From IMG/VR virus record IMGVR_UViG_3300032116_000062, positions 1 through 64,000 of that record: a stretch of 64,000 bases of DNA; one strand, 5' to 3'. The stretch comes from a virus. Positions 13,531 to 38,364 of this stretch are shown piece by piece (position 1 is the first letter of the stretch; every line of letters begins with the position of its first letter). Made by a program: the position numbers and the translations under genes. Under the pieces are notes generated by a model. That model had not been told where the DNA came from. It made no database searches and saw only the letters and a list, made by a program, of their open reading frames with translations.

Positions 13531-15555
13531 ATGGCAATTAAAAGTGTAAAAAAATCTTGGGGAGCAAATAAAGACATAAATTATGTCGGAAAGGATTTTG
13601 AATCGTTAAAACAAAATTTAATAGATTATACAAAAACCTATTTCCCAAATACATATTCGGATTTTAATGAAGCATCTCCGGGTATGGTTTTCATAGAACA
13701 GGCTGCAGCAATAGGTGATGTATTATCTTTTTATCAAGATACACAACTAAAAGAATCAATGCTTGCATATGCAACGGAGCGTAAAAATGTTATGGCATTG
13801 GCACAGGCAATGGGGTACAAACCAAAAGTAACAACACCTGCAGTTACGACTCTAACGGTCTACCAATTAGTTCCATCAAAGGGTGCACCAAATTATGAAC
13901 CCGATGAATCTTTTTATTTTAAAATTAGTGAGGGGATGCAAGTTGCATCAACCACAAATTCAAACGTAGTATTTAGAACAAACGATGTTGTAGATTTTGC
14001 AAATGAAACTAATAGAGAAATATCCGTTCACGAAAGAGATGGTACAACAGGATCTCCGACTTTTTATTTGATAACAAAAAAAGTAAAGGCCATTTCTGCT
14101 AGAGAAATTTCAACTACAATAAACGTTCCAGCTGGTGATTTAGATTATCCATCGGTAAATATATCGGATAATAATATAATTGAGATAGTATCAATAACCG
14201 ATGAAAATAACAACAAATATTATGAAGTACCTTATTTGGCACAAGAAAGTATTTTTGTTGAAAAACCAAATACGGATGTAAATAGTAGTTTGTATGAGTA
14301 TTCAAATGTTGTTCCTTATGTTTTAGAAGTTCAGAAAGTACCAAGAAGATTTTCGGTATTAATAAATTCGGATAACACAACTACTATACAATTTGGAAGT
14401 GGTGATGTTAACATGAATGATGAAATTATATTACCTAATTCAAAAAATTTAGGTTTAGGTTTGGCAAATTCAATAAAGAGAGTTAATGTTGCAATAGATC
14501 CTTCTAATTTTTTAAAAACAAATACATTTGGAATAGCCCCTGCAGGGAAAACTTTGACTGTTAAATATTTAGTTGGAGGTGGGGTAGAATCAAACGTAAA
14601 TCAGGGTGATTTAACAACTATAAATAGAATAGAGTTTGATGAAGATTTATTATCTATAAGTGAATCGAATTTACCATTGTATCAGACAATGAAAAATTCA
14701 ATTGCAATTGAAAATGAAGAGTCGGCAACTGGTGGTAGAGGATCAGAATCGATTGAAGAGATTAGGCAAAATGCACTTGCTACGTTTGGTTCTCAAAACA
14801 GAGCTGTTACTCGAGAAGATTATGTTGTTAGAGCTTTATCTATGCCAGAACGATACGGTAGTGTTGCAAAAGTTTATGTAAGTCCTGATGGTGAAATCGA
14901 TAATAATTCGCCTGCATCTATACTGGCATCTCCAAAAAATATAGCAGAATTTGTTGGTGTTGTTGAGGGATTAAAAGATAAATCTACAAATGAAATACAA
15001 AAAGAATTGGTTAAATATCTTTCACAAAAAAAGAAATCAATTTCAGAAGTAAATAATCCATTTGCTATAAACATGTATGTTTTGGGATTTGATTCTAATA
15101 AAAAATTAACAAACTTAAATCAGGCAGTAAAGGAAAACTTAAAAACATATATTGGAGAATATAGAATGTTGACAGATGCGGTAAATATAATTGATGGATT
15201 TGTGGTCAATATTGGTTGTGATTTTGAAATAATAACTTATTCTGAATATAATAAAACAGAAGTGTTAACAAAGTGTATTACAGAATTGCAAGATTATTTT
15301 AATATAGATAACTGGACATTTAATAAACCAATAAACATTTCGGAAATAGAGTTAATTATTGCAAATGTTGAGGGTGTTATGAGTGTACCTTCTGTTAAAA
15401 TATATAATTTATGTGCAAGTGATAATGGAAATTATTCACCGAATAGGTACAATATAGCAGAAGCAACGCAGGGAAAGATTGTATATCCATCTTTAGATCC
15501 TTGTGTATTTGAAGTTAAATATCCTAATAAAGATATAAAAGGGAGGGCCTTATAA
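13531..15555 (+). CDS. baseplate wedge protein, T4 gp6/baseplate J-like
   Basis: DFESLKQNL..Y, YSDFNEASPG, IQFGSG, GGRGSESIEEIR and QNRAVTREDY motifs. Confidence 0.9.
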   Translation: MAIKSVKKSWGANKDINYVGKDFESLKQNLIDYTKTYFPNTYSDFNEASPGMVFIEQAAAIGDVLSFYQDTQLKESMLAYATERKNVMALAQAMGYKPKVTTPAVTTLTVYQLVPSKGAPNYEPDESFYFKISEGMQVASTTNSNVVFRTNDVVDFANETNREISVHERDGTTGSPTFYLITKKVKAISAREISTTINVPAGDLDYPSVNISDNNIIEIVSITDENNNKYYEVPYLAQESIFVEKPNTDVNSSLYEYSNVVPYVLEVQKVPRRFSVLINSDNTTTIQFGSGDVNMNDEIILPNSKNLGLGLANSIKRVNVAIDPSNFLKTNTFGIAPAGKTLTVKYLVGGGVESNVNQGDLTTINRIEFDEDLLSISESNLPLYQTMKNSIAIENEESATGGRGSESIEEIRQNALATFGSQNRAVTREDYVVRALSMPERYGSVAKVYVSPDGEIDNNSPASILASPKNIAEFVGVVEGLKDKSTNEIQKELVKYLSQKKKSISEVNNPFAINMYVLGFDSNKKLTNLNQAVKENLKTYIGEYRMLTDAVNIIDGFVVNIGCDFEIITYSEYNKTEVLTKCITELQDYFNIDNWTFNKPINISEIELIIANVEGVMSVPSVKIYNLCASDNGNYSPNRYNIAEATQGKIVYPSLDPCVFEVKYPNKDIKGRAL

Positions 15556-17818: not shown

Positions 17819-17823
17819 AAATT

Positions 17824-19143: not shown

Positions 19144-22100
19144 ATGGGATTAGAATCACCTACTGAAAATCTTTTTGGCGGAGATGTTACTACGAATAAC
19201 CAATCACCTTTGGATGGTACGTCAGGAACTACATCAGGAATACGAGATACCGTACTTACCGGAAATACTACTTTGTTAACTTCCGGTGGAGGTGGAGGAG
19301 GTGGCGGTGTTTGGGTCCCACCATCTGGAAACGATGGAGTATTGAATATAATTTTACAGTCAACAGAAGCAGCACGATTTTTGGAAACAGGAGTCGGAGT
19401 TGGAATTGGAACATCGGTAAAATTAACATATTCACCATCTTTGACATTTGGTAACTCAAAAACATATACCGCCGAAATAGAAGGTAAACGAACGTTAAAT
19501 TATTTTATAGTTTCTGTAAAATCCACACAAAATATTACAGGAGCATATTTAAGTTCTGATCAACTATTTGTAGAAGAATATATTTACGATTCTACAAATT
19601 CGAATTATGTATTAACAAATGTAAGAGAGTTACAAAGTACATCGGGTACAATTGATTTACAATTTATATTTGAATCAAAGGTTAGACCTACACTTATATT
19701 GAATCCAGAACCAGATCCTCCTATATCGACTCCTGCAGATGATATTTCTGTTGGATATGAGATAGCTTTTGCTACAAATTTAAGTTCAGAACTAGGGGAT
19801 TCAATTTCTTTAAAATACAAATTAGCAACAAGTACAAATGATATAGTTGATGAGGGAGTTATATTATTATCTGAAGGATCTACAGATGGGAAGCAAATAA
19901 AAAAATCCATATTAGATAGTGGATACGTTATTTTTGAAATAGATGGAATGTTACCAAAAGGTGTATCTTATTCTTCCGTTTATTGGGCGAATAAAACTAC
20001 TGCCGAATCGAACATTAATGATTTTTCAAAATGGAATAGTACCAATCAATCCTTTAAGATATCATCTAAAGAATTATTAAATGGTGTTGTTGTATTTGCT
20101 GAATTAGAAAAGTTAATACCGAGCGAAAAACCAAAAATATCCGTTGTAAAGGATAGATACGATATAGATGTAAAAGAATCTGATGTAGAAAAGGAAGTAT
20201 TTGTGGAGTTTTCGACAGAAAATGCAGATTATGTAAATGCTTATATTTCTACGGATAAATTTATTAAAGTAGATGCTAAATCGGGGATTGCAAATCTATT
20301 TTTTGTTAAGGATTTTTTAAAAGTATATGGACTTAAAAAAGTAATTTTAGTAGCTGAAAGTGAAAAATACGGAACAGGAGATAAAGTAGAAGTTTTATTA
20401 AATTTCATTGCAATAAATGATTTCCCGTCTGTAACTCAAATAGTTTTTCCGAATGAAATAGATATACCAAGTTTTTCTGATTACAATATTAGTTATGATG
20501 TAACATATAATACATTTGCTACTACTCATATCAATGTTGAACTATTACAAAAAGATAACACAAAAATTTTAGTATTTAAAAATTTAGCACCAAATAACTC
20601 ATTTAAAATAAATTTGAGAGATTTGGCTAAATCTTTTCCTAATTGGAATGGAAGTGATAATATTACACTTATCATAACACCAATAAACAATTCTGGTTCA
20701 AAAGAATTAATAGGTAACACATATGAAATAAAAACAAAATTATTACAACCATCAATAAAATTAGATGAAGATTCGATTAGAAAATCTATTTTTGATGCAT
20801 TTGTAGATACTATAGCTTTTTCAGAACCACAAAAAGAAAGTAAGTATTTAACACATCTTGCAAACTTTGGTAATGATGAACAAATACTGATTTCTTCTTG
20901 GGAACAGGATAATTGGACTTTATCTGATAAAACGGAAGATGAATTTGGAAATATAACAATTACAAATGAGGTAAAATCTATAATACTAAAATTATATAAC
21001 CCACTACCTGCAAATGTTGTGGATAATTCTACTTTTTGGATTACCAAACTTATGGCTAATCCATTGATAGAAACTGTTATATTAAATGAACAGGATGAAT
21101 TAAGTTGTCCTCCACTAAAAGGCCCTAATTTTAATATAGATATAGATTATATAAAGGGTAAATCAACTAATTACGAATCACTTGATAATTTAATATTAAG
21201 TGCATCTGTTTCTAGCTCATCGGAACTAATACAAAGTTATTTGAGTTCTTCTGTTTTCGATACATCAAATTTAAACGTTGAATATGTAAGTGGATCTGAT
21301 ATAAATGCTGGATCCATACTTTGGGAAAATTTTGTACACTTTAGTTCAGCAAAAGAGCGTGTCATAAACTTTAGATATAAAGTAGAATTGATAGAAGCAT
21401 ATGAATCGGCTATATCATCATCTTATCACGGAGGAGGAGCACATACGACCACTCTATCTGCAATTCAAGAAAGAGAAAAGAATTTAGATAAAAAAAGAAA
21501 AGTTATTCAAGGATTCGATGGATTTGAATCTTTTTTGTATGAATCTTCATCCTTCGGATGGCCATATAATGGTTCTGACAGAAGATTAAGTAATGATACA
21601 ATAGTAGATGTTTGGTATGATACTATAATAGAATTGGCCAATGATTATGATTCTATGAATTATAATTGTGTATTAAATAATGTACCTGCATACATTTCCG
21701 ATTATGAGGAAAATGAAAGTTATTTACTATTTTTATCAATGATAGGACATCATTTTGATAATATATACTTTTATACAAAAGCAATAGAAAGAAGTAGGGG
21801 ATTGGGTTATAAATCCACAAATGGTATATCGGATAAGTTACTATATGATACATTAAAATCGTTTAATTGGAATGCATTAACTTTGGATAGTAGTGCACAA
21901 CTTTGGAAATTAGTATTTGGAATGGATTCCGATGGTAATACCAAAGAAAGTACATCCGTAAAACAAAGAACCCACAAAGTATGGAGAAGAATAATAAATA
22001 ATTTACCATATTTGTTAAAGCATAAAGGAACAAAACGTGGAATTTATGCATTAATGGCGTGTTATGGAATACCTGCATCAAATTTATCAATTATAGAATT

Positions 22101-24558
22101 TGGTGGACCAGAGGTATCCGATGTTGAAAGCACAAAATCAAAATTTGAATTTGATAACATATCAAATACACTTATTTTTAACGATGGTGCGTATATAGAA
22201 ATGCCATGGAAGAATACAGATAAAGGTAGGAAGCCGGATACCATTGAAATGTTTATCAAACCGGCATATTCGGGAGAATGGACAGTTCTTACTGGAAGTG
22301 CAGATTGGAATTTATCATTGAGTGGTTCTGTAGATAGTTCATACGGAAAAGTAATATTTGATTACGGAACAGGAACTCTTCAAACGGATACTCTACCAAT
22401 ATTCAATGGTTCGTTCTTTGGTATATGTTTAAGTAGACAGGATGGTTCGCCTGATACGTTTAGATTAAATGTAAGGCAATCTAATAGAGAAAGCGTTGTG
22501 TTTGAGGATAGTAAAACGACTACTGCAGCTTCTCACAACTACGATTCCGATGGTATTTTACGAATAGGTAATAATCAAAGTTATAGTGGAAGTATAGATG
22601 AGTTTCGTTTATGGAGTGAAGTATTAAATCAAGATGTGTTCAACCAACACGTTTTCTTTCCAGAGATGACAAATGGTAATAGTATATCGGCATCTACATC
22701 TGATTTGTATTTCCGTTTAGATTTTGAATATCCAAAAAATTTAGCACAAACATCATCTTTAATAAATGTTGATACCAATGTTTATTATCCAATAATTCAA
22801 TTAAATCCTTCAAGTTCTTTACAAATTACAAGAAATATATTGGAAGAAACTGGTTCAATTGGAAATAATGTTATACTATCGGAAAACCCATATACAATAT
22901 ATTCCGCATCTGCGCATAATTTTACATCTATCACATCATATCCGTATAATTTTGAAACAATAGAAAGAACCAATGTATTAGAAATACCAAACATAGGTTC
23001 ATCAAGATATTCTACAAACAAAGTAAGATTTGAAGAGCAGTATACGTTGGATGGGCAAAAGATAAGTGGAAGTGTTGGAGTTGATTTATCTATAAAAAAT
23101 AGATCAACGAAAAAATCATTTGATCAGGCTCCAGTAGATTCTAATAGAGTTGGATTATTCTTTTCTCCTACAAAGGAATTAAATATTGATATTGCCAAAT
23201 CAATTGGTGGGTTTAATTTAGATAATTACATAGGTAACCCAGCAGATAGGTATAAATCAAATTATAAATCGTTAGATGAATTAAGAAAATATTACTTCAA
23301 AAGATTTGATAACAGAGATGTATACGAATACATTAACTTAATTAAGTTATATGAAAAGTCGATGTTTGAAGATATTAAAAAAATGCTACCTGCAAGGGTT
23401 AAGGCAACAACTGGTCTATTAATCGAACCGCATTTTTTAGAAAGAAGTAAAATACAACAAAATAAACCAACAGGTTCAAATGATTATCAGGAATCCGAAT
23501 TAGATACAACCGAAACTAGATTAGTATTAGCGGAAACTGCAGATTTAAATACTAACATAGATACTGCAGATGAATATGATTTATTCGGTGAAGATAATCA
23601 ATATGAGACAACGGTAACTGATACTAAAATAGAAGCATTAAATGCGGATGAGTATCAAGAAGATGGTATAATAAATTTAGATGATACAAACTTACTTACA
23701 GGTGAAAATGAGTATTATGAAACCAATATAGATGCTAAATCGGATGAGGCCACATTACAAATCGAATCTGAAAACCAATCTTTTTCAATGTTTGGACAGG
23801 ATGCATCTAATGATTTGGGATTTGGGATATATTCGATGCATGGACATTCTATAAGGTCTTACTATGATAGTAATGGAATACTACGAACCGAAAGGGTAAT
23901 TGTTTATTATTTAACGGAAGAAAAAACAAAAACATATACTACATTTAAAGAGTTTATTGATGGCGTTGGTGACCCAAGAGCTGGATATAATGTTACAACC
24001 ATACCATATTCCGAAACAACGTTGAATATAAAACCATTAACACCGATTACGGTTGGTGATTTAATAACTATACCAAGAATTGATTTGGAATTAGATGAGA
24101 TTGAATTTTTAGATTCGGATATGGTATTATGGACTGCCGATTTATTATTACTCAATTTAACTACAGATGAGTTAGAATTTAGATATCCACAATCTACCGG
24201 TACAATATATAAAGCAACTTTGACCGGATTGGATAATCAAAATGGTGCACAGGCAGAGGGTTACAATTTAGATTTTATCACTACACCGGGTACAACCGTA
24301 ACATATGGTGGGTTTCCTGTAGTTGGTGGTAGAATAACAAGCGTAGTTCCCGTTGATGGATATACACAATACCATTATAAACGTGTTGGGGATTTAACTA
24401 GGGGGTTAAAAAATTCATACTACAATGGATCTAAAAACACAGCAGCGACCACTTTAGATGGATCACCTCCTGTTGAGATATTTGTTACTAATCCAAATAC
24501 GTTAAGAGTAAATAAAGCCGGAAGGGATGCAAATGAACCTATTTTGGAAGTTGAGTAA
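19144..24558 (+). CDS. large virion/baseplate protein (1804 aa) with LamG-like domain
   Basis: LLKHKGTKRGI...YGIP (tail P2-I/gp7-like motif); YSGSIDEFRLWSEVL LamG signature; structural context. Confidence 0.6.
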   Translation: MGLESPTENLFGGDVTTNNQSPLDGTSGTTSGIRDTVLTGNTTLLTSGGGGGGGGVWVPPSGNDGVLNIILQSTEAARFLETGVGVGIGTSVKLTYSPSLTFGNSKTYTAEIEGKRTLNYFIVSVKSTQNITGAYLSSDQLFVEEYIYDSTNSNYVLTNVRELQSTSGTIDLQFIFESKVRPTLILNPEPDPPISTPADDISVGYEIAFATNLSSELGDSISLKYKLATSTNDIVDEGVILLSEGSTDGKQIKKSILDSGYVIFEIDGMLPKGVSYSSVYWANKTTAESNINDFSKWNSTNQSFKISSKELLNGVVVFAELEKLIPSEKPKISVVKDRYDIDVKESDVEKEVFVEFSTENADYVNAYISTDKFIKVDAKSGIANLFFVKDFLKVYGLKKVILVAESEKYGTGDKVEVLLNFIAINDFPSVTQIVFPNEIDIPSFSDYNISYDVTYNTFATTHINVELLQKDNTKILVFKNLAPNNSFKINLRDLAKSFPNWNGSDNITLIITPINNSGSKELIGNTYEIKTKLLQPSIKLDEDSIRKSIFDAFVDTIAFSEPQKESKYLTHLANFGNDEQILISSWEQDNWTLSDKTEDEFGNITITNEVKSIILKLYNPLPANVVDNSTFWITKLMANPLIETVILNEQDELSCPPLKGPNFNIDIDYIKGKSTNYESLDNLILSASVSSSSELIQSYLSSSVFDTSNLNVEYVSGSDINAGSILWENFVHFSSAKERVINFRYKVELIEAYESAISSSYHGGGAHTTTLSAIQEREKNLDKKRKVIQGFDGFESFLYESSSFGWPYNGSDRRLSNDTIVDVWYDTIIELANDYDSMNYNCVLNNVPAYISDYEENESYLLFLSMIGHHFDNIYFYTKAIERSRGLGYKSTNGISDKLLYDTLKSFNWNALTLDSSAQLWKLVFGMDSDGNTKESTSVKQRTHKVWRRIINNLPYLLKHKGTKRGIYALMACYGIPASNLSIIEFGGPEVSDVESTKSKFEFDNISNTLIFNDGAYIEMPWKNTDKGRKPDTIEMFIKPAYSGEWTVLTGSADWNLSLSGSVDSSYGKVIFDYGTGTLQTDTLPIFNGSFFGICLSRQDGSPDTFRLNVRQSNRESVVFEDSKTTTAASHNYDSDGILRIGNNQSYSGSIDEFRLWSEVLNQDVFNQHVFFPEMTNGNSISASTSDLYFRLDFEYPKNLAQTSSLINVDTNVYYPIIQLNPSSSLQITRNILEETGSIGNNVILSENPYTIYSASAHNFTSITSYPYNFETIERTNVLEIPNIGSSRYSTNKVRFEEQYTLDGQKISGSVGVDLSIKNRSTKKSFDQAPVDSNRVGLFFSPTKELNIDIAKSIGGFNLDNYIGNPADRYKSNYKSLDELRKYYFKRFDNRDVYEYINLIKLYEKSMFEDIKKMLPARVKATTGLLIEPHFLERSKIQQNKPTGSNDYQESELDTTETRLVLAETADLNTNIDTADEYDLFGEDNQYETTVTDTKIEALNADEYQEDGIINLDDTNLLTGENEYYETNIDAKSDEATLQIESENQSFSMFGQDASNDLGFGIYSMHGHSIRSYYDSNGILRTERVIVYYLTEEKTKTYTTFKEFIDGVGDPRAGYNVTTIPYSETTLNIKPLTPITVGDLITIPRIDLELDEIEFLDSDMVLWTADLLLLNLTTDELEFRYPQSTGTIYKATLTGLDNQNGAQAEGYNLDFITTPGTTVTYGGFPVVGGRITSVVPVDGYTQYHYKRVGDLTRGLKNSYYNGSKNTAATTLDGSPPVEIFVTNPNTLRVNKAGRDANEPILEVE

Positions 24559-24605: not shown

Positions 24606-25229
24606 ATGGGATATTTAAGTAATACAGAATTGACAGTAGATGCAATTCTTACTAAAAAGGGTAGAGAAAAACTTGCAGCAGGTTTGGGATTAAACATTAC
24701 TCAATTTGCATTGGCAGATGATGAGATTGATTATTCTCTATATGAACCGGCACACCCATTGGGGTCTGCATATTATGATGCGGCAATTAAAAATATGCCA
24801 GTATTAGAGGCTTCACCCGATGAGACGCAAGTTATGAGATATAAGTTAGTAACACTTCCAAAAAACACAACAAGAATTCCTGTTGTTGAATTTGGTGTTC
24901 CTAATATATCCGTTAATCAAAGAAGTGGTGAAGTGGCATTATCGCCTACAACATCGCCTGCAGGAAATAGAACTTTGGGTTATACCATTGTTTTAGCAAA
25001 TAAAGCTGCCGGAGATATAGTTGGTGAAGGAGTAACATCTGAAGTTGGTTCTGTACCTGTGTTTATTGGTGATGATGTATCAGCAACAGCTGCAATTGCA
25101 AAGGGATTAACATTTAAATTTATACCAAACCCATCATTAACAGCAACTACAAAAACTACTATAACCGTTTATGGTAATGAGACGGGTGGTTCACAAACAA
25201 TTCCAGTAACCGTAACATACGTTCAATAA
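24606..25229 (+). CDS. virion structural protein
   Basis: VDAILTKKGRE...ITQFALADDEIDY N-terminus of the tail-collar/baseplate type. Confidence 0.6.
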   Translation: MGYLSNTELTVDAILTKKGREKLAAGLGLNITQFALADDEIDYSLYEPAHPLGSAYYDAAIKNMPVLEASPDETQVMRYKLVTLPKNTTRIPVVEFGVPNISVNQRSGEVALSPTTSPAGNRTLGYTIVLANKAAGDIVGEGVTSEVGSVPVFIGDDVSATAAIAKGLTFKFIPNPSLTATTKTTITVYGNETGGSQTIPVTVTYVQ

Positions 25230-26568: not shown

Positions 26569-26589
26569 ATTAAGATATTTATATGTGAT

Positions 26590-28311: not shown

Positions 28312-29253
28312 GTGTTGAAGCAGACTGATAAAAATATCGTAGTATCCACGTTGTCTAATACGTTGGGTAGTTATTCCGTATTAAAGGGTAACGAATTAGC
28401 ATTTTATTGTCCGTTTTGTAATCACCATAAACAAAAGTTGCAGGTAAACACCGAAACGCAGAAGTGGCATTGTTGGACTTGTAATAGTGGTGGTAAGAAA
28501 TTGACATCCCTACTTCGTAAACTTGATGTGGACAGGAAAACTATATCCATAATTAGAGAAATATACGGAGATAGTAATTGGACACCACAGCAAGAAGATG
28601 CCGATACAAAAGTATTCATTTCCCTTCCAAAAGAATTTATTAGTTTAGCAGAAGAACCCAAAGGATTTAATCCTGAATATAAAAATGCTATGTATTATCT
28701 CACTCAAAGAGGTATTACTATAAAAGATATAATCAAATACAATATCGGTTATTGTAAAGAGGGATTATATGCACAGAGAGTAATTATTCCTTCATATAAT
28801 TCCGATGGGTCACTTAATTATTTTATTTCTAGGTCTTACTACCCAGAAAACAAAATGAAATATAAAAACCCACCAATCAGCAAAAATGTTATATGTTTTG
28901 AATCGCAGGTAAATTGGAAAGAACCAATTATACTTTGTGAGGGTGTATTTGATGCAATCACAATCAAAAGAAATGCTATCCCACTTTTAGGTAAGTTTCC
29001 ATCTAAACAATTAGTTGAGAAAATCTTTATGAGTGGAGTAAACAATATTATTATTTCATTGGATAACGATGCAATGAATGAAGCATTGAAAGCAGCAGAA
29101 TATTTCCGTAAGAATGGAATAAATGTAAAGATGATGTATCTAAAAGATAAAGATGCTGCCGATATGGGATATGAAAAATTTTATGAAGAATTAAATAAAA
29201 CAACAGAATTTAATAGTGAGGAATTACTATTGGCAAAAATAAATCAATTATGA
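28312..29253 (+). CDS. DNA primase (zinc finger + TOPRIM)
   Basis: CPFC..H...WHCWTC zinc finger; LCEGVFDA and LDND TOPRIM motifs. Confidence 0.9.
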   Translation: MLKQTDKNIVVSTLSNTLGSYSVLKGNELAFYCPFCNHHKQKLQVNTETQKWHCWTCNSGGKKLTSLLRKLDVDRKTISIIREIYGDSNWTPQQEDADTKVFISLPKEFISLAEEPKGFNPEYKNAMYYLTQRGITIKDIIKYNIGYCKEGLYAQRVIIPSYNSDGSLNYFISRSYYPENKMKYKNPPISKNVICFESQVNWKEPIILCEGVFDAITIKRNAIPLLGKFPSKQLVEKIFMSGVNNIIISLDNDAMNEALKAAEYFRKNGINVKMMYLKDKDAADMGYEKFYEELNKTTEFNSEELLLAKINQL

Positions 29254-32200
29254 AATTAAAAAGAATTTACCACATTGCCGATGTACATATTCGTAATGTC
29301 AAAAGACACAAAGAGTATAGACAAGTATTTGAAAAGATGTTTGAAGAAATCCGTAAAAGAGGAACGGAAGATTCAATAATTTATTTAGCAGGCGATATTG
29401 CACATGCTAAATTGGAAATGTCTCCTGAATTATTAAAGGAGATTAGTTGGTTATTTACCGAATGTTCTAAATTATGTGAAACTATTCTTATTACGGGTAA
29501 CCACGATTGTAATATGAACAATTTGGATAGATTGGATGTTCTTACACCAATTGTAGAAGCATTGGATTTACCAAACTTTCATTATTTGAGAGATACACAG
29601 GTCTATTCTATTGGTGGAGTTGATTTTTCCGTATTCTCTATCTTTGATAATAAAGATAATTGGATTACCGCAGATAAAATGTTTGGTAATAAAAAGATTG
29701 CATTATTTCACGGACCAGTTGATAACTCAATGACAGATGTGGGGTATGTTGTAAGTAGTAGACACTTTACAACGGATATATTTGATGGGTTTGATTTGGC
29801 TTTATTAGGTGATATTCACAAAAGACAAGAAATGATTAGTCCGAAAGGATGTAAGGTTGTATATGCCGGTTCGTTGGTTCAACAAAACTTTGGTGAGACA
29901 TTAGATAAGCACGGATTCCTTGTTTGGGATTTAGATACTATGACATACGAAGCAGTGGATATTCCAAATGATTACGGATACTACACTTTGGATGTTGATA
30001 ACGGATTTGTGCCGGTTGTAAACGATATGCCGAAGCATGCCCGATTGAGAGTTCGTTTATCTAACACAGATACTGCAGATACGAAGAAAGTTCTAACGCA
30101 AATAAAGATGCTGTATGGTATTGAGGATTTAACACTAATTAGAACGGATTCTCTTTCTAAAGTAAAGACGGGAAATAGGCAAGGTAAATTGGAGTTTGAA
30201 GATATTACGGATGTAAATCACCAAAACTCACTAATACAAGATTATGTGAAACGAATGATGCCATTTGTGACTAATTCGGACTTAGCAGAATTGGAAACAA
30301 TAAACAGAGATATAAATAGTAGGATAGTATTGGATGATGTGGCAAAAAATATACAATGGAAACCTATTAAGTTTACATTCAGTAATATGTTTTCATATGG
30401 TGAAGATAATGTTATCAACTTTAATAAACTAAATGGATTGATGGGATTATTCGCACCAAATGCATCAGGTAAATCATCACTATTTGATTCAATCTCTTTC
30501 TGTCTTTACGATAAGAGTAGTAGAGCATTCAAAGCGGCAAATATAATGAACAATCGTAAATCCGATTTTTATTGCCAATTGGATTTTGAAGTAGAGGGTG
30601 TAGAGTATCATATCCGCAGAGAAGCCCGTACAATTAATAAGGGAAAGAACGTAAAAGTGGATGTTCAATTCTGGAGAGTAGTTGATGGTATTGCAGAATC
30701 TTTAAATGGAACAGAGAGGCGAGATACCAACGCAATCATTGAGCAATATGTGGGAACATACGAAGATTTTGTTCTTACTGCATTGAGTTTACAAGGTAAT
30801 AATGCTCTATTCATTGATAAATCCCAAAGTGAGAGAAAGGATTTGTTAGCACAATTTATGGGATTGAATATCTTTGACAAGTTGTATGATACAGCAGTTG
30901 AAGATATTAGAGAAGTAAGTGTACTTATCAAAAATTTTAAGAAAACCGACTTTACGACGGAACTGGCCGAAAAGGGTAAACTCATTAAACAAAAGAAAGA
31001 TGAATTAAAAGATTTACAATCGAAATTAGATACGGAAACAAAAACTAAATTAGGTATTGAAAATACTATATTAGATTTAACAAGAAAACTCACTCCGATA
31101 GATTCTAATTTGGACTTACCAACATTAGAAGAAAAAAGAAAATCAATTTCAAAACAAATTACCGATTTAGAAAAGGAGTATGATACAAAAGAAACGAAAA
31201 TAGAAGAATATAAACAACTAATTTCAGAATTATCCCAATCAATAGATATGATGGGTGATATGGAAGTATCGCACACTGCGTATACCGAAAAATTGAATGA
31301 GTATAAAGTTGAAAAACAAAAGCTAGAGTTATTAGAAGTTAAATTAAATGCAAACAAAGATAAACTTTCACATTTAGAAAAACACGAATACGATCCTAAT
31401 TGTAAGTTTTGTATGAATAATGTGTTTGTAAAGGATGCGTTAAAAACCAAAGAGGAATTAGAACAGCAACAAACGGAATATGATGAATTAGAAACAAATG
31501 TTAATGTTATTAATGGTGTTATTAATGATTTTGGTAATATAGAAGAAAATTACAAAGGATATATTGAAATAAAAAACAAATATTCAAAAGGAAAAGTAAT
31601 ATTAGAAAAAGCGGAAGCTGAATTGAAGGGGTTGGAAACAAAAGAAGAATTATTACAAACTCAATTAGATAAAGTAGAAGAAGATATTGACAAGTACTAT
31701 GAAAACGAAGATACAATTGAAAGTAATAAGGATTTGGAATTGGAGATAAAAGAACAGGAATCACTAAAGAGGAAAATTGAAGGGGTAATACGAGATTTCA
31801 ATAAAGTAATAACCGACACAAATGGTTCTATTGCGCAATTACAATCGTTTATAGACAACATCAAAGGTAAGATGGATGAAGTTAAGGACTTGGAAGAAAA
31901 GAACCGCCTATACACCTATTATTTGGATGCTGTGAAGCGTGATGGAGTTCCATACGAACTTATTTCAAAGGCACTTCCTGTAATACAGAATGAAGTAAAT
32001 AATATTTTAGGACAAGTGGTAGATTTTGGTGTTGTAATGGAAGTGGATGGCAAAAATATCAATGCAAAAATTGTGTATGAGGATCAGGAGTGGGCATTAG
32101 AAATGTGTAGTGGTATGGAGAAGTTTATTAGTGGTCTGGCAATTAGAGTTGCGCTGATAAACATATGTGGTTTACCTCGTCCAAACTTCTTGGTAATCGA

Positions 32201-32378
32201 TGAAGGATTTGGGACATTAGATAGTGATAATCTTTCATCCCTATTTGGTATGATGCAATATCTTAAAACTCAATTTGATTTTATATGGGTAATTTCCCAT
32301 TTAGATGCTATGAGAGATATAGTCGATGGACTTATAGAAATAAAAAAAGAAAATGGATTTAGTAAGATTGATTTTTAA
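29250..32378 (+). CDS. fused SbcD(Mre11/gp47)-SbcC(Rad50/gp46) nuclease-ATPase
   Basis: ADVH, GDIAH, GNHD and LGDIH phosphoesterase motifs; Walker A APNASGKSS; Q-loop; coiled coil with CKFC hook; CSGME signature; VIDEGFGTLD; ISH. Confidence 0.92.
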   Translation: MKLKRIYHIADVHIRNVKRHKEYRQVFEKMFEEIRKRGTEDSIIYLAGDIAHAKLEMSPELLKEISWLFTECSKLCETILITGNHDCNMNNLDRLDVLTPIVEALDLPNFHYLRDTQVYSIGGVDFSVFSIFDNKDNWITADKMFGNKKIALFHGPVDNSMTDVGYVVSSRHFTTDIFDGFDLALLGDIHKRQEMISPKGCKVVYAGSLVQQNFGETLDKHGFLVWDLDTMTYEAVDIPNDYGYYTLDVDNGFVPVVNDMPKHARLRVRLSNTDTADTKKVLTQIKMLYGIEDLTLIRTDSLSKVKTGNRQGKLEFEDITDVNHQNSLIQDYVKRMMPFVTNSDLAELETINRDINSRIVLDDVAKNIQWKPIKFTFSNMFSYGEDNVINFNKLNGLMGLFAPNASGKSSLFDSISFCLYDKSSRAFKAANIMNNRKSDFYCQLDFEVEGVEYHIRREARTINKGKNVKVDVQFWRVVDGIAESLNGTERRDTNAIIEQYVGTYEDFVLTALSLQGNNALFIDKSQSERKDLLAQFMGLNIFDKLYDTAVEDIREVSVLIKNFKKTDFTTELAEKGKLIKQKKDELKDLQSKLDTETKTKLGIENTILDLTRKLTPIDSNLDLPTLEEKRKSISKQITDLEKEYDTKETKIEEYKQLISELSQSIDMMGDMEVSHTAYTEKLNEYKVEKQKLELLEVKLNANKDKLSHLEKHEYDPNCKFCMNNVFVKDALKTKEELEQQQTEYDELETNVNVINGVINDFGNIEENYKGYIEIKNKYSKGKVILEKAEAELKGLETKEELLQTQLDKVEEDIDKYYENEDTIESNKDLELEIKEQESLKRKIEGVIRDFNKVITDTNGSIAQLQSFIDNIKGKMDEVKDLEEKNRLYTYYLDAVKRDGVPYELISKALPVIQNEVNNILGQVVDFGVVMEVDGKNINAKIVYEDQEWALEMCSGMEKFISGLAIRVALINICGLPRPNFLVIDEGFGTLDSDNLSSLFGMMQYLKTQFDFIWVISHLDAMRDIVDGLIEIKKENGFSKIDF

Positions 32379-32631: not shown

Positions 32632-35600
32632 ATGGCGATTCTTAAAAAAACATTATTTCCTGAAGATTTAGAAAAGTATAAAGTATTAATAGAGGATACG
32701 GATCCTGATAGTAGATATTTTAGAATAAGTGAACTGGATGATACATTTACAGGAGGAAAAAATGCGTTTTTAATACAGGGTTCTGAAGAGTTAGTTGCTG
32801 ATACGATTGTAAAAATTGAAATAAAAGATTCTTTAGGAAATATAATTTATCACGAACCAGGAGAAGGTATACCAGAATACTATGAGGGGGTTTCAAAAGT
32901 TGTAGCAGTTTATATATACCCAGATACGTTATTCGGTCCATGTACTATAACAATACTTGGAGAACTTAAAGAATATGAAACTATAAATGGTTTAAAAGTT
33001 CCTGTTCCATTTGAATGGCAAAATAAGTATAATGTTAGGTGGCAAAAAACTGTGAATGTAAATCCACTTTTATCAAATACTACAAAAGTTAGATTTTATC
33101 GTAGGCCAAAGGTTGATATAACTGAATCAATACTTCCGATTTATAACAGAAGTGTTGATAGAAAAACAATATCAGGATCAGTTGATGGAATTGCAATCAG
33201 TCCAATTGAAGGTGAAGATTATAAAAGTTTTAAAGGAATATTACAATATAATTTAGAGATAACAAATAATGCAAATTTATCTCAATCAATGGAAGGTGAA
33301 ATAATAACCATAAATGGGTTATCAAAAGAATATTCACCAACTATAACAGATATTACTACTAATAAAAAATGTTTAGTAAATATCCCATATTATATAACTT
33401 CTTCTTTCTATCCAAACTATGAAAGTGTAACATCATTTGCATCGGCATCTTACACAATGTCGTATGATGAACAGATACTTTTTACAAATTCAAATGTTAG
33501 TTCATCTTTTGCAAGGATTAAGATAACAGATTTAGAAACATTTGCCGGCGATGCAAGTAGAATAAAAATTTATGCAAAAAGCCGTAACTCTTTGGGAGAT
33601 TACGAATTGTTGGAAGATATTCAATTAGAAAGTAATGAATTATTAATTACCGATGAATTTAATAATGAATTAAATGTAAGAACAGGAATTTTTTCGCAAC
33701 AAATTTTAGACAACTTTTGGGTTACGCAATCATTAGAATCGGTAGTTAATTTATCATTGGATAATGAATTGTTATTTCAATCTGCAAAATTAGAAAGAAG
33801 TTCACCAATATCATCATCGACTGGATTATTTAAATTTTATTCATCGCAATCATTAGATTTTACAAAATTTACCGAATATCAATTGGATTTTACACCATTG
33901 TTAAGTTCATCTGATGGTTTGGCTAAAATAGAAATATATGCTAGTGGTTCTGCATTCGTTGATACCGATGTTGCGACAGATAATGGTAAATTATTAGGAA
34001 GTATAGAAACAACAAAAAATTTTACAAGATTTGATAAACAACAAATTAATTTTAATCCTGATTCCAACGGAACCGGAAATTTAGTTTTTTTAGTAAAAAA
34101 TGGAGATTGGCAAATATCGAATATTGCATTGAGGGCGGCCGAAGAATCTTCTTTTTCACCAAATGAAGTTACTTTAATAGCAAATGTACCTACAAGAATT
34201 AATAATGAAACGTTTGATTTTAGAGTAGAAATATATGATATTAATAATAATTACATTCCTGTAAAAATTGAAAAATCGTATACTTTTACCGGTGGAAACG
34301 ATTTATTAATCAATAGGAATTTGGAAGTAAACGTATCAAATAATTCATTTAATTTTAATACAGCATCCGCATTCCCATCTACTATCTTAATAGATTATTT
34401 TAAAACAGCTTTAACAGGTGCAGTATCATTTTACTCATCTGCGGTAGATACAACAGGTGCAGAAATTACAATTGGTGATTTAAATCCATCTACAAATTAT
34501 CCTGGATTTTTAATAGATGTGGATTCCGATACTAAACAACTTACTTTAGAAAATTTTACAGCATCTTTAGCATCAAAAACGGTTGGTGCAATATATTACA
34601 CAGCAAGTTGTGAAAATATAAATAGATATTTTACCATATTCAGAATAGATCAGGGTGCACCATCTTATTTATTTTACGCAACTGCTGATAAAAATAATTT
34701 TACATTTAATCCAGACTACTATTATAAATCTGTTGTTGATAACGATTATATTGATATTAGATTGGTGCAGCAAAACTTACCTGCAATTTTACCGCCAAAT
34801 AGTTTAAGTATATATTCGGCATCCTTATCAGGTCCAATTGTTGGTGGTGGTAAATATACCGCACCTTTACATTATGTTGGTGGTATAGGAAATGCATCTA
34901 TATATCGACTATATGTCACATCATCTGCACATCAATCATACCCTACGGGCGATGGTTATTATTTTGATCTTGGACAATCTACATATGATTTCGAATTAGT
35001 GACATCCGATGGAACGTTTACATCATCTGTGACGGTCGATGCGATTGAGAGAGGTGCAACTGCACCTATTATAAATATTTCAAATGAGAATGTATCTTTA
35101 CCTGCAACATCTACCGGAGTTATAGCTCCTGCCGCATATTCGGCCACAACGGGATCTATATCTGTAAAAGTTGTTGATAGAACTATAAATTACGCATCAC
35201 CGATAACAAATGATGCATTCAGTGCTTCAGTAAAACAATCATCAGGTGTAAGTGGTGCTAATATAAATTCAAATGCACAATATTCTATAACTCAACTGAA
35301 TTCCGATAGTGGTAGTATTACATTAGAAATTGAATATAAAAATAGTAGAGGTAGTAGTAGTTTATTTGAAAAAGAAATAAACTATATAAAAAATAAAAAT
35401 GCAGTACCAAACGTAATGATTGTTGCAACACCACAAGCACAGGCGGTACTTGCTGATCAATATGGTACACAGGCGGGTACATTATCAAATGTTACAATTG
35501 ATGCTTTGGAAGGAAATACGAGTAGATTTACATCAATGGTTATTGCATCTACTTCAGGATTTTCAACTCCACCAACCGTTAGTGGTCAAACTTTAACAAT

Positions 35601-38364
35601 GACTTCCGCTATAATGAATGCAGCTGAGGCCTCTGTTGAACTGACTGTTACACATACGGATAGTGAAGGAACTGTGGGGCAGACAAAGACTATAATAGTT
35701 AGAGCCACAAAAGTCAATACAGGTGCAAACGGATCAAATGGTTCAAATGGTTCACCGGGTGCAAATGCGGTAAGCATACAAATAAATCCACCAACACAAA
35801 CTATAACAAAATCAAATACAGGAACATATTCAGCGGTATCTCCTTTTACGGTTTTAGTAACAGAAACGGGCTCACTTTTAACATACGTTAGTGGTAATCC
35901 AACTTTAAATAATGGTGAATTTAAAATAACAAACGTATATAGTGGAAGTGGTATAACAAATGGTAATCCGGCAACATCAAATACAATAACACCAATATCA
36001 CCAACAAGCGTTGCACCATATAATACAACATTTGGTGTAACATATAAAAATTCAATTGGTATAGAATCCGTTACCATCCCATTTTCTCATAGTGTTATTA
36101 CAGTTTTAGATGGACAAACAGGACCAGGAGTCGTATTTACTGGAGTTTGGGAATCGGGCAGAGCATATCAATTTAGTTCAGGTGCCGGTACGGGCAGGAG
36201 AGATGTGGTATTATGGAGTACATCGGGTACCGCACCATACGATACATATTATGCTGCCATTAGACAGCACGTATCTGCGGGTGGTAATGTGGCTGATGGT
36301 GCTCCGCATCAAGGAAATCAAACTGGTTGGGAAAGTTTAGGCACACAAGATTTCTTTGTGGCTGCGAAAATAGGTTTGTTTGAAGAATCGTATGTACAAA
36401 ATACTTTAAACGTTGGTACTAATAATAATGGTGGAGTATCAACTGCGAATATTACATTGGCAGGTGGTACGCAATATCCATATATTTCATTGGGACAGAC
36501 TGTGCAAGGAGTTTATAATGCCGATGGAATTTATATAGGTAATGATAGTGGTAACTATAGAATGTCATTAAAGGGTGCGAATGGTGCATTGGCTTGGGAT
36601 GGTTCAAATTTAAATGTAAGTGGTGCAGTAAAAGCAACAAGTGGTGATTTTGAAGGATATATGACAGTTGCCGGCGGTAGTATGAAAATAGGAAAGGATG
36701 TCCAAAGTACAAACGATGGAATATACATTAATCCAAACAACTATTGGTATTCTAATGGTAATTTTAAAGCAGGTGGTGATGCGGGATATATGAGTTTTGA
36801 TGGAACTACCTTATTTGTATCCGGAGCAATATCATCATCCGAAGGTAGTTTGGGTGGTTGGAAGTTAACGGATTCTGCAATATATAGAGGAACAATCGGT
36901 TCTGATGATTCATTTACAAGTAATGGTGGTGATATAACATTGGGTAGTGGTTGGATATCGGCAAAGGAGTTTAGAGTTAATTCTGCAGGTAATGCGTTCT
37001 TTAGTGGAAGTATCACAGGTGGTAGTATTAATATAGGAAATGGTAAATTTATTGTGACAACTGCTGGAACTGCCACTCTTTCTGGATCAATTCATACTAC
37101 CGGCGGAACAATTGGTGGTTGGGTCGTTGATGGTGCGGTGTTGAGAGATGTTAATAGTAGAATACTTTTAAATCCCGGAACACCGTCAATTGATATTTAC
37201 GATACATCTAATGTCAAAAGATTGACTATGAAGTATGGTTTATTGACATCTGTAAACTCATCTGCAACAATTACAATAGATCCACCATCACATTCCCCAT
37301 CTTATGAAAGAATATTTAGTGGAGATGGTGAAAGAAGAAGTGGAACTTATAATTCTTTTTATGCATCCGAAGCGGGTACATATACAGGAACATATACTTA
37401 TGTAGCGGTTAATAGTGTTGCTACCACAGGACCAGCGTGGAGTGGATATTTTTCCGTATACAGATATGTGTTGATAACGGATAGTAATGATATTCCTATT
37501 GCAACTATTTCTGCAGGCGGTGATTCTGCATTTAGTAATAATGAAACTTTAAATCTTGTTGGAGGTTCTTACACATTTTATTTGACCATACCGGCGGCCG
37601 GCACATATAGAGTATATTCTGTATTAGAATATATCGCATATCCAAGTAGTTATGGATCCGGTGTATATGTGGATATAAATGCAAATAGTTGGAATGATTC
37701 ATCTTTTAATGGAAATATACAGCTTAATATAGCGGAAATTTCGGATGATGGATTTCAGGTAATTTCATCTGCAAATAGTTATTGTATAATAAAAAGAGGT
37801 GGAGTATATGCTATAGAAGCAAAAGGTGGGTTACTTATAGAAGGTAATGGAGCCGAATTATATATGGCCGGCAAAGTTCATCCATTGGTGGGTAATACAC
37901 ATGATTTAGGATCAACTGGTAATAGATGGAAAACGGTTTGGACTAATAACGCATTAAATACTACATCTGATGAACGATTTAAAAATTCAATTGAAGATAC
38001 TGATTTGGGTTTAGAATTTATCAATAATTTAAGACCAGTAAAATATAAAAATAATGCGGCTACTACTCCAAGATATCATTATGGATTGATTGCACAGGAA
38101 ATAATATCCACATTAAATGATTTTGGAAAAACAACTGATGATGTTGGATTTATTGCAAGTGCATCGGTTAACTACACCGTAGCAGAAATAGAAGAACTAA
38201 AAACCAAACCGCATTGGAGTTCAATTGAAACAGAAATAAGTGCATCCATACGACAAGAATTGGGATTATCATATACCGAACTATTATCTCCTATGATTAA
38301 AGCAATACAACAATTATCTGATAGAGTTTTGGAATTAGAAGCAAAAATAAGTGGTTCTATATGA
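32632..38364 (+). CDS. tail fibre/receptor-binding protein with C-terminal intramolecular chaperone (peptidase S74-like)
   Basis: collagen-like GANGSNGSNGSPGAN (35722-35766); Gly-rich beta repeats (GSLGGW, GTIGGW); TSDERFKN...GLIAQE...LSPMIKAIQQL chaperone from 37966. Confidence 0.85.
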   Translation: MAILKKTLFPEDLEKYKVLIEDTDPDSRYFRISELDDTFTGGKNAFLIQGSEELVADTIVKIEIKDSLGNIIYHEPGEGIPEYYEGVSKVVAVYIYPDTLFGPCTITILGELKEYETINGLKVPVPFEWQNKYNVRWQKTVNVNPLLSNTTKVRFYRRPKVDITESILPIYNRSVDRKTISGSVDGIAISPIEGEDYKSFKGILQYNLEITNNANLSQSMEGEIITINGLSKEYSPTITDITTNKKCLVNIPYYITSSFYPNYESVTSFASASYTMSYDEQILFTNSNVSSSFARIKITDLETFAGDASRIKIYAKSRNSLGDYELLEDIQLESNELLITDEFNNELNVRTGIFSQQILDNFWVTQSLESVVNLSLDNELLFQSAKLERSSPISSSTGLFKFYSSQSLDFTKFTEYQLDFTPLLSSSDGLAKIEIYASGSAFVDTDVATDNGKLLGSIETTKNFTRFDKQQINFNPDSNGTGNLVFLVKNGDWQISNIALRAAEESSFSPNEVTLIANVPTRINNETFDFRVEIYDINNNYIPVKIEKSYTFTGGNDLLINRNLEVNVSNNSFNFNTASAFPSTILIDYFKTALTGAVSFYSSAVDTTGAEITIGDLNPSTNYPGFLIDVDSDTKQLTLENFTASLASKTVGAIYYTASCENINRYFTIFRIDQGAPSYLFYATADKNNFTFNPDYYYKSVVDNDYIDIRLVQQNLPAILPPNSLSIYSASLSGPIVGGGKYTAPLHYVGGIGNASIYRLYVTSSAHQSYPTGDGYYFDLGQSTYDFELVTSDGTFTSSVTVDAIERGATAPIINISNENVSLPATSTGVIAPAAYSATTGSISVKVVDRTINYASPITNDAFSASVKQSSGVSGANINSNAQYSITQLNSDSGSITLEIEYKNSRGSSSLFEKEINYIKNKNAVPNVMIVATPQAQAVLADQYGTQAGTLSNVTIDALEGNTSRFTSMVIASTSGFSTPPTVSGQTLTMTSAIMNAAEASVELTVTHTDSEGTVGQTKTIIVRATKVNTGANGSNGSNGSPGANAVSIQINPPTQTITKSNTGTYSAVSPFTVLVTETGSLLTYVSGNPTLNNGEFKITNVYSGSGITNGNPATSNTITPISPTSVAPYNTTFGVTYKNSIGIESVTIPFSHSVITVLDGQTGPGVVFTGVWESGRAYQFSSGAGTGRRDVVLWSTSGTAPYDTYYAAIRQHVSAGGNVADGAPHQGNQTGWESLGTQDFFVAAKIGLFEESYVQNTLNVGTNNNGGVSTANITLAGGTQYPYISLGQTVQGVYNADGIYIGNDSGNYRMSLKGANGALAWDGSNLNVSGAVKATSGDFEGYMTVAGGSMKIGKDVQSTNDGIYINPNNYWYSNGNFKAGGDAGYMSFDGTTLFVSGAISSSEGSLGGWKLTDSAIYRGTIGSDDSFTSNGGDITLGSGWISAKEFRVNSAGNAFFSGSITGGSINIGNGKFIVTTAGTATLSGSIHTTGGTIGGWVVDGAVLRDVNSRILLNPGTPSIDIYDTSNVKRLTMKYGLLTSVNSSATITIDPPSHSPSYERIFSGDGERRSGTYNSFYASEAGTYTGTYTYVAVNSVATTGPAWSGYFSVYRYVLITDSNDIPIATISAGGDSAFSNNETLNLVGGSYTFYLTIPAAGTYRVYSVLEYIAYPSSYGSGVYVDINANSWNDSSFNGNIQLNIAEISDDGFQVISSANSYCIIKRGGVYAIEAKGGLLIEGNGAELYMAGKVHPLVGNTHDLGSTGNRWKTVWTNNALNTTSDERFKNSIEDTDLGLEFINNLRPVKYKNNAATTPRYHYGLIAQEIISTLNDFGKTTDDVGFIASASVNYTVAEIEELKTKPHWSSIETEISASIRQELGLSYTELLSPMIKAIQQLSDRVLELEAKISGSI

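Follow-up and report, generated by a model that had tools for sequence, protein, structure and literature searches.

A recurrent, ordered [ST][GA]S peptide in outward virion proteins of an uncultured freshwater phage and its putative role as a glycosylation tag

Why should one short peptide, a serine or threonine followed by a small residue and then a serine, recur throughout the baseplate and fibre proteins of a phage, and what might read it? The question is raised by the first 64 kb (64,000 nucleotides, hereafter the window) of the 102,380-bp virus contig IMGVR_UViG_3300032116_000062, which comes from an uncultured freshwater phage (the source phage). A preliminary description of this DNA counted the motif [ST][GAS]S by hand in several virion proteins and proposed that it serves as the acceptor sequon of a sugar-pathway gene cluster lying next to the tail fibre gene. 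The observation is confirmed and is stronger than was first stated: the motif is a peptide under selection, fixed in its order and limited to some of the outward virion proteins. Its hydrophobically flanked form, phi-[ST]-[GA]-S-phi (phi denotes a hydrophobic residue), may be a tag read by an enzyme, and we discuss below why a putative role in cytoplasmic O-glycosylation is our tentative preference and why the adjacent cluster is unlikely to be its reader.

An ordered peptide in five window proteins

The motif-rich proteins of the window are encoded by five open reading frames (ORFs), which, like all window features described here, lie on the + strand. The earlier hand counts of [ST][GAS]S proved exact. 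The 364-amino-acid (aa) protein encoded just 3' of the baseplate J-like wedge gene (15555..16649) has 7 sites against 1.6 expected, 5 of them being [ST][GA]S, and the 1804-aa virion protein (19144..24558), which has a weak LamG domain at aa 1029-1164 and is motif-rich over aa 517-1443, has 18 against 6.8, including 11 of the [ST][GA]S form. Two baseplate-region proteins of 418 aa (25238..26494) and 341 aa (26563..27588) carry 8 sites against 2.4 and 10 against 2.0, respectively, the latter protein being the densest in the window (z 5.7). Finally, the 1910-aa tail fibre (32632..38364; phrog_7121, tail fiber) has 25 sites against 12.1 expected, 17 of which are [ST][GA]S. Each of the five ORFs reaches a z value of 3.8-5.7 over 1000 shuffles of its own composition, and the same comparison of structural with non-structural proteins finds no excess in the primase or the SbcD-SbcC fusion (SbcCD).

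Limiting the middle residue to glycine or alanine sharpens the signal, such that [ST][GA]S is observed 47 times in the five proteins against 13.8 expected from whole-protein shuffles (z 8-9). The excess survives shuffling within blocks of 30 aa (14.7 expected) or 15 aa (15.5 expected), and therefore local richness in Ser, Thr and Gly is not its cause. Four tripeptides are enriched 2.4-4.2-fold, namely TGS (14 observed, 3.6 expected), SGS (18, 4.3), TAS (6, 2.5) and SAS (9, 3.1). The corresponding forms that end in Thr are at expectation (SGT 6, 3.7; TGT 5, 3.0; SAT 2, 2.4; TAT 2, 2.1), as are the permuted forms [GA][ST]S and [GA]S[ST]. Forms with a middle Ser were dropped from the motif, SSS being weakly enriched (15 against 6.3, 2.4-fold) and TSS not at all (6 against 5.2).

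A screen of all 8000 tripeptides, made independently of the motif as originally proposed, ranked SGS first (p 1.3e-6) and TGS second, and the component dipeptides are merely 1.3-1.5-fold enriched (Ser-Gly, 1.3-fold). The hydrophobic flanks that had been noted by eye are borne out, with 51% hydrophobic residues at positions -1 and +3 against a background of 33%. Tyr and Ile are favoured in the flanks, Lys is depleted around the sites, and both Asp and Lys are depleted at +3. The complete 5-mer phi-[ST]-[GA]-S-phi occurs 20 times in the five proteins against 1.7 expected, an 11.6-fold excess. Literature searches found no paper describing an [ST][GA]S motif.

Given that the motif and the protein set were picked after seeing the data, it must be asked whether chance, an artefact of composition or an effect at the DNA level could produce such a pattern, particularly since the first Ser of motif sites genome-wide is encoded by AGT in 54% of cases against a background of 26%. 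We regard this explanation as effectively refuted. Block shuffles keep the z values, the unbiased screen recovers the motif, and the excess recurs across 144 relatives and in three cultured phages with G+C contents between 30% and 42%. A DNA-level motif was ruled out in its own right, as third-Ser codons are used at background frequencies, the bias among Ser positions is limited to the first, and the 9-mers that encode the motif are diverse. The Ala of motif sites is likewise biased (GCA in 93% against 64%), and the bias at this residue and at the first Ser may stem from a recent origin of sites out of Asn, Gly, Thr or Arg codons.

The motif is also specific to certain proteins. The other 53 window ORFs together hold 7 [ST][GA]S sites in 15,759 aa. 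The baseplate J-like wedge protein (13531..15555; phrog_219, E 2e-24) serves as an internal virion control without excess, having 1 site against 1.6 expected, and its orthologues in the cultured phages immuto and Mel-JY01 have none. The primase (28312-29253) and SbcCD (29250-32378), identified by Pfam and treated as cytoplasmic controls (together 28312..32378), contain no sites, as had been reported. A third protein said to be site-free, a carbamoyltransferase, did not stand up equally well: Pfam reveals no carbamoyltransferase, and the 639-aa ORF at 55358-57277 (cupin plus nucleotidyltransferase) has 1 site. Summed over homologues, the observed and expected totals are 0 and 11.3 for primase and 7 and 19.8 for SbcCD, and endonuclease I, primase and SbcCD together give 7 against 36. 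We rejected such avoidance in cytoplasmic enzymes as evidence, since the rest of the genome stands at 0.59 of expectation and phage T4 at 0.55.

The sharpest avoidance of the motif in the data is seen in a Thr-rich family of the baseplate module itself. Its window member, a 207-aa protein with 12% Thr (24606..25229), has no sites, and its 38 homologues have 1 [ST][GA]S against 17.5 expected, together with 41 [ST][GA]T against 27 (1.5-fold).

An all-against-all BLAST comparison of the motif-rich proteins revealed no similarity among the five window proteins beyond a C-terminal module of ~39 aa (consensus GLYDD...L.AVAK) that is common to the 418-aa (26374-26494) and 341-aa (27466-27588) proteins and is site-free. 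By this measure the five are not paralogues and the motif is not one repeated module. The two C-terminal ends themselves look like paralogous attachment modules.

Fold was controlled for by holding a scaffold, phi-x-[GA]-x-phi, fixed. The scaffold is no commoner in the five proteins than elsewhere. Of its 89 occurrences there, 21 have [ST] and S at the x positions; the corresponding figures are 2 of 338 in the rest of the genome (Fisher p 1e-13) and, for baseplate and fibre proteins of T4, 0 of 140 (p 5e-10). Outside the five proteins, D, K, E or N usually fill these positions, the choice expected of residues that are exposed. The LamG domain of the 1804-aa virion protein offers a further comparison with the LamG domains of two cytoplasmic glycosyltransferase family 7 (GT7) enzymes encoded in the window, given that two Gly positions are conserved across all three. 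At the first position the virion protein reads L-SGS-V and the enzymes Q-DGV-L and L-NGR-E; at the second, the virion protein reads Y-SGS-I and the enzymes F-KGT-I and F-KGQ-I. The motif is thus independent of fold and paralogy.

Several of the five proteins have features that affect how individual sites are read. The tail fibre has a Peptidase_S74 self-cleaving intramolecular chaperone domain (37966..38127, aa 1779-1832; Pfam PF13884, E 1.9e-10), and three of its sites (aa 1843, 1870 and 1907) lie C-terminal of this domain. The terminal ISGSI, which had been singled out as a site, is indeed present in the ORF but stands behind Peptidase_S74, and it is probably absent from the mature fibre, and so from virions, because characterised members of this family lose the C-terminal part after folding. 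Sequence searches of the PDB gave no match to the fibre, the 364-aa protein has no PHROG or Pfam match, and the 341-aa protein matches the Phage_stabilise family weakly. AlphaFold2 models of the 341-aa and 418-aa proteins are poor, with a predicted local distance difference test score (pLDDT) of 51 (22 homologues) and 58 (41 homologues), and Foldseek searches of the PDB with these poor models gave no match at E<=0.001. Sites in the weak model fall in loops, strand ends, a hairpin turn and a helix N-cap, placements on which we do not rely given the quality of the model.

Recurrence and turnover beyond the window

The motif is denser still in the part of the same genome that lies outside the window. 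Two paralogous repeat fibres, of 956 aa (87193-90063) and 1546 aa (90193-94833), contain 50 sites against 9.6 expected and 74 against 15, respectively. Their tandem units are of the type FTASA..RLTNLESKSASVD..NLNASSASQQTSIN, with TAS and SAS occurring several times per unit. Both fibres (87193-94833) weakly match the alpha-helical coiled-coil tail of reovirus sigma1, and by this resemblance the motif appears in helical as well as beta-rich proteins. A 1394-aa protein outside the window has 26 sites against 5.6, and further sites occur in several smaller ORFs as well as in the neck and major capsid proteins. In the capsid protein, which matches phrog_138 and aligns to T4 gp23, all six sites fall within aa 123-251, in and around a variable segment whose alignment with gp23 is poor or absent, and the conserved core has none. 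The sites of the capsid proteins of immuto (3 sites) and Rhodothermus phage RM378 (1 site) occupy the same variable segment, which from T4 capsid structures we take to be the external insertion domain.

Relatives were gathered from IMG/VR, where 144 contigs carry a homologue of the 341-aa protein; the homologue counts that follow are phylogenetically non-independent. Across its unique homologues, each of the five motif-rich genes retains an excess of [ST][GA]S, which ranges from 2.3-fold to 12-fold. Observed and expected sums are 52 and 4.3 for 15 homologues of the 364-aa protein, 469 and 104 for 46 homologues of the 1804-aa protein, 399 and 85 for 58 homologues of the 418-aa protein, and 265 and 41 for 54 homologues of the 341-aa protein. 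[ST][GA]T stands at 0.4-1.0 of expectation in four of the families and at 1.4 in the fibre homologues.

The alignments show many sites that are found in part of a family only. Turnover was measured by counting sites in homologues of less than 80% identity at columns that are site-free in the reference, with only those residues shuffled that differ from the reference. Such novel sites are enriched in the three large families, by 4.6-fold in the 341-aa family, 3.3-fold in the 1804-aa family and 2.6-fold in the third. Homologues at 52-66% identity share with the reference 1-3 of 7 or 2-7 of 11 sites, and for the 341-aa family the share is 1-3 of 7 at 60-70% identity. Site density is therefore kept while site positions move.

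Three cultured phages show the same trait. Overall ratios of observed to expected sites are 3.6 for the source phage, 3.4 for Microcystis phage Mel-JY01 (190 kb), 2.4 for Flavobacterium phage immuto (160 kb) and 2.1 for RM378 (130 kb, 42% G+C), and the G+C contents of the motif-positive phages span 30% to 42%. The syntenic baseplate module of immuto gives observed and expected counts of 5/0.8, 8/2.4, 4/0.9, 5/1.0 and 53/12.4, with 13/1.9 in gp056; syntenic proteins of Mel-JY01 give 4/0.55, 13/2.3, 7/1.35, 7/1.1, 9/0.75 and 6/0.8. For the syntenic homologues of the 364-aa protein in particular, the counts are 5/0.77 (immuto) and 4/0.55 (Mel-JY01). RM378 has 68 sites against 32 overall and 26 copies of the 5-mer against 4.7, its excess being concentrated in six ORFs at 64.8-78.5 kb (27 against ~4.3). 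BLAST finds no similarity to source-phage proteins for five of these six, the remaining one being the neck protein. In the baseplate and fibre neighbourhoods of five unrelated myoviruses (T4, K64-1, PA5oct, BRock and BCD7), no ORF is significantly enriched and overall ratios are 0.55-1.22. The trait is thus restricted by lineage.

Candidate enzymes

The window has a G+C content of ~30%, and nearly all of its genes are co-oriented on one strand. Complete IMG/VR relatives measure 198-245 kb, one of them having direct terminal repeats, and the 102,380-bp contig is therefore about half a genome. No near-identical DNA was found among GenBank phages. The nearest cultured relative of the baseplate J protein is that of Mel-JY01 (43.5% identity), ahead of immuto (39%), and the comparison favours no single host phylum. 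Gene order runs from the baseplate J wedge gene through unannotated structural genes to endonuclease I, primase and the SbcD-SbcC fusion, then to the 1910-aa tail fibre, and from there into ~25 kb of sugar-pathway genes.

This co-oriented sugar-pathway cluster (38361..63792) follows the fibre gene directly, its first ORF (start 38361) overlapping the end of the fibre ORF (38364). As assigned by Pfam, it encodes a methyltransferase, a radical SAM enzyme, DUF6071 and DUF5672 proteins, a cupin plus nucleotidyltransferase, RmlC, three SDR epimerase/dehydratases, split E1-like thiamine diphosphate subunits and two paralogous GT7 enzymes with LamG domains (41212..44102; Glyco_transf_7N, Glyco_transf_7C, Laminin_G_3). 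All 5 large relatives tested have the GT7-LamG enzymes, as do 264 IMG/VR contigs (59-87% identity).

The preliminary description assigned the motif to this cluster, by analogy with animal proteoglycans whose chains begin at Ser-Gly and are extended by a GT7 enzyme. The position of the cluster against the fibre gene, the conservation of both enzymes across the close lineage and the capacity that a LamG domain could have to bind protein substrates make this an obvious proposal, yet we consider it very improbable. The expected co-occurrence of GT7-LamG with the motif does not hold across immuto and Mel-JY01, in which nothing scores above the Pfam cut-off for GT7-LamG, and RM378 likewise shows motif excess without these enzymes; a search of the phage collection with one of the two paralogues also gave no match. 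BLAST finds no glycosyltransferase common to the source cluster and the immuto and Mel-JY01 clusters, the sole matches being SDR epimerases in immuto, with nothing matching in Mel-JY01. The analogy itself fails, in that hydrophobic flanks, with Asp and Lys depleted at +3, stand where the context of xylosyltransferase sites would be acidic, and the Ser-Gly dipeptide is only 1.3-fold enriched. Moreover, GT7 enzymes use sugars, and not peptide, as acceptors.

What else the sugar genes might decorate can be narrowed to some extent. No convincing membrane-spanning segment was found in the cluster products, the three hydrophobic maxima being nucleotide- or cofactor-binding folds or lying in the next gene, and nothing points to a flippase, a polymerase or a lipid-carrier transferase. 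A lipid-linked exported polysaccharide is therefore an unlikely product. The DNA of immuto contains dA, dC and dT, with 7-(formylamino)methyl-7-deazaguanine (fdPreQ1) replacing dG, and no glycosylated nucleoside was reported (doi 10.1101/2023.04.13.536721). Because no sugar adduct was described among the published nucleosides, DNA glycosylation does not account for the immuto cluster. Targets other than virion proteins thus look less likely.

A second set of enzymes follows the motif more closely. The genomes of immuto and Mel-JY01 share a syntenic core that comprises a glycosyltransferase family 4 (GT4) enzyme of 460-480 aa, a GT-B enzyme of 420-455 aa, a small family 2 (GT2) enzyme of ~210 aa and a larger GT2 enzyme. 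All four complete relatives (G001, G002, G006 and G007) have this core, with 44-49% identity to that of immuto, in a region not covered by the 102-kb contig. RM378 also has a tandem GT4 arrangement, and small GT2 enzymes are present in all motif-positive phages but RM378. Only 7 records of the phage collection match the first GT4 enzyme at E<=1e-8, namely Mel-JY01, four immuto records, LR756508 and RM378; the five motif-negative control phages are all absent from this list. The motif and the GT4 pair thus co-occur in four lineages (the source lineage, immuto, Mel-JY01 and RM378), in a comparison uncorrected for shared ancestry.

Both GT4 proteins keep the invariant EX7E motif and match Glycos_transf_1 and GT4-conflict in Pfam. 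The best solved relative of the 460-aa GT4 is the chlorovirus glycosyltransferase B736L (PDB 3OY2, E 2.4e-10), a match to the C-terminal GT4 domain only. In complete relatives the pair belongs to a second glycan island (in one of them L185:4421-16006; G001:C1:50420-62005) together with two small GT2 enzymes, a larger GT2 and a HAD-nucleotidyltransferase fusion, and this island is partly syntenic with immuto and Mel-JY01. The first GT4 of Mel-JY01 appears as two ORFs of 190 and 302 aa (L180:13442-14933; 83441-84932), which reflect either a split gene or a sequencing frameshift.

Competing explanations and known systems

Given that the motif is ordered, independent of fold, specific to certain proteins and lineages, and kept at constant density while its positions drift, we infer that something reads it. 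Gene content makes cytoplasmic O-glycosylation the best candidate, and we tentatively prefer, with somewhat less than even confidence, the interpretation that phi-[ST]-[GA]-S-phi is an enzyme-read tag that most plausibly serves as a putative O-glycosylation acceptor. The sequon proposed in the preliminary description would accordingly survive as an ordered, selected peptide of outward virion proteins in a lineage rich in glycosyltransferases, but not its assignment to the adjacent cluster or its likeness to proteoglycans. Under the preferred interpretation, the tagged proteins would be those of the outer baseplate, fibres, neck and capsid insertion domain. Soluble phage glycosyltransferases, for which the tandem GT4 pair is the best candidate, would prime Ser or Thr on newly made structural proteins. 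Lineage-specific accessory enzymes would then extend or tailor the glycan, a role that could here be filled by the 25-kb cluster, which contains branched-sugar genes and encodes the two GT7-LamG enzymes, the radical SAM enzyme and the methyltransferase. The outcome would be a sugar coat over the tail tip, fibres and capsid. On a wider and more doubtful view, a widespread clade of large aquatic phages that includes immuto, Mel-JY01 and RM378 might practise general, sequon-directed O-glycosylation of virions in the cytoplasm by the GT4 pair, with the coat diversified by glycan islands and with sites that drift like those of animal-virus glycan shields.

Several observations weigh against modification of the tag, and some of them speak for a structural or surface habit peculiar to the lineage, in which hydroxyls would replace Lys, Glu and Asp on an exposed face without any covalent change. 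Where sites are conserved, neither the Gly nor the hydrophobic flanks vary, and the Ser or Thr positions are 65-100% conserved, mostly 65-85%, with replacement by A, V or E. A structural element, strand or turn, that favours a polar face would show the same picture. The pattern phi-x-small-x-phi agrees with the in-and-out alternation of amphipathic strands and with positions d-e-f-g-a of coiled coils. On this view the small residue would be the centre of amphipathic strands and coiled-coil flanks, and solubility, hydrogen-bond packing of trimers, polysaccharide binding or low non-specific stickiness could each be the reason. In addition, the neighbourhood of the sites is poor in Lys, three sites belong to the probably discarded chaperone part of the fibre, and all of the motif-rich proteins are probably oligomeric, forming fibres or parts of the baseplate. 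Many of the same statistics would be expected from a surface that is uncharged, rich in hydroxyls and unmodified. At pLDDT 51 and 58 the AlphaFold2 models are too poor for site exposure to be read from them; exposure has indirect support in the placement of all capsid-protein sites in the variable insertion and in the charged residues that other proteins have at the x positions of the scaffold.

Yet Thr is the better strand former, and the third position is nearly always Ser (SGS and TGS 32, against SGT and TGT 11). Alpha and beta contexts alike favour this tripeptide, as do folds with no relation to one another; T4 and four other myoviruses make parts of the same kinds without using it, and sites turn over with density held constant. 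We judge the unmodified habit somewhat less likely than the glycosylation tag, and it is the principal rival. Further points against the glycosylation tag concern its specificity and its proposed enzyme: off-target sites are not specifically avoided (0.59 of expectation in the rest of the genome against 0.55 in T4), some immuto fibres show enrichment of [ST][GA]T in place of [ST][GA]S, a GT4 homologue is found in the jumbo phage LR756508 alongside only a weak excess (1.7-fold) in the 41 kb sampled, the RM378 pair sits among DNA-metabolism genes, and the motif-positive phages may be one old clade, in which case GT4 co-occurrence would count as a single event. The case for modification is drawn from sequence comparison.

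The tag might instead direct some other change to Ser or Thr, such as phosphorylation, acylation or acetylation, ADP-ribosylation or a radical-SAM reaction, with the sugars destined for the host envelope or for DNA. The radical SAM enzyme and methyltransferase of the cluster would suit this idea, as would the position of the RM378 pair, and the nucleoside data come from immuto and not from the source phage. We nonetheless think it improbable, as no kinase or acyltransferase has yet been tied to the motif, no sugar adduct is reported from the DNA of immuto, and the cluster has none of the membrane or export machinery that a host-envelope product would need.

If the tag is glycosylated, sugar-coated virions would be predictable from sequence across hundreds of uncultured aquatic phages. 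To our knowledge this would be the first phage glycosylation system with a recognisable sequon. Turnover at constant density would then point to an evolving glycan shield on a bacterial virus, with a bearing on host recognition, escape from recognition by hosts or grazers, and particle stability. If the tag is unmodified, it remains a sharply drawn rule for surface design, specific to this clade and not seen in T4-type tails.

Precedents include phages that modify their own particles. Phage-encoded glycosyltransferases are proposed to glycosylate the structural proteins of mycobacteriophage virions (Freeman et al. 2023, as cited in PMC12619734); where PMC12619734 deals with these glycans it places them on the C-terminal ends of capsid and tail-tube subunits, and that account mentions no internal sequon. 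The source phage would resemble mycobacteriophages in having its own enzymes coat its own virion in the cytoplasm. It differs in its short internal peptide, which is spread across baseplate, fibre, neck and capsid insertion, and in its GT4 pair and large accessory clusters. Moraphages are another group of large freshwater phages with core glycosyltransferases (PMC12619734).

In Gram-positive bacteria, the conserved and adjacent GT-B core pair GtfA/GtfB O-glycosylates Ser and Thr of serine-rich repeat adhesins in the cytoplasm, and variable accessory enzymes extend the product (PMC7661464). The proposed division of labour between a conserved GT4 pair that primes and a local cluster that elaborates is similar, a resemblance of mechanism and not of family membership: an NCBIfam scan of the GT4 pair found no GtfA/GtfB model, only weak generic GT4 matches far below the cut-offs. 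The acceptor repeats of the serine-rich repeat proteins are of the S-A-S-x type, and they resemble the TAS and SAS sites in the repeat fibres of the source phage. GtfB is non-catalytic, and both phage enzymes keep EX7E. In further contrast to the serine-rich repeat system, the window sites are isolated and hydrophobic-flanked, with no long Ser-x repeats and no accessory Sec system; no Sec component turned up in a general Pfam scan of ~46 proteins encoded beyond the first 13.5 kb of the window.

Chloroviruses likewise glycosylate their capsids with soluble cytoplasmic machinery of their own, B736L being the best solved GT4 relative. Chlorovirus glycans, however, are N-linked to Asn at atypical sites, and N-x-[ST] is not enriched in the five proteins (77 against 71.3, ratio 1.08). 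The autotransporter heptosyltransferases Aah (acting on AIDA-I) and TibC (acting on TibA) are soluble cytoplasmic enzymes of the GT9 type, each with one dedicated substrate. They modify many Ser residues in short strand-loop-strand elements of a repetitive, beta-rich surface protein, and in this they are reminiscent of the present case; they differ in enzyme type and in their single substrate, and no such enzyme turned up in the source phage, although no search was aimed at one.

Finally, the general O-glycosylation sequon of Bacteroidota is given as D-(S/T)-(A/I/L/V/M/T) (Coyne et al. 2013, as cited in PMC7661464). There, too, three residues mark many unrelated proteins for O-glycosylation, as the source-phage motif would do, but the Bacteroidota system is periplasmic and lipid-linked. 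The two motifs are distinct, as had been noted at the outset: that of the source phage includes no Asp, and D-[ST]-[AILVMT] is at expectation in the five window proteins (20 against 20.9, 0.96) and is not enriched in the other motif-rich proteins (15 against 25). Among non-virion proteins, counted over the window ORFs other than the five and over 64-102 kb of the contig, the Bacteroidota sequon shows a 1.47-fold excess (82 against 56, z 3.9), which may be a compositional effect of enzyme motifs.

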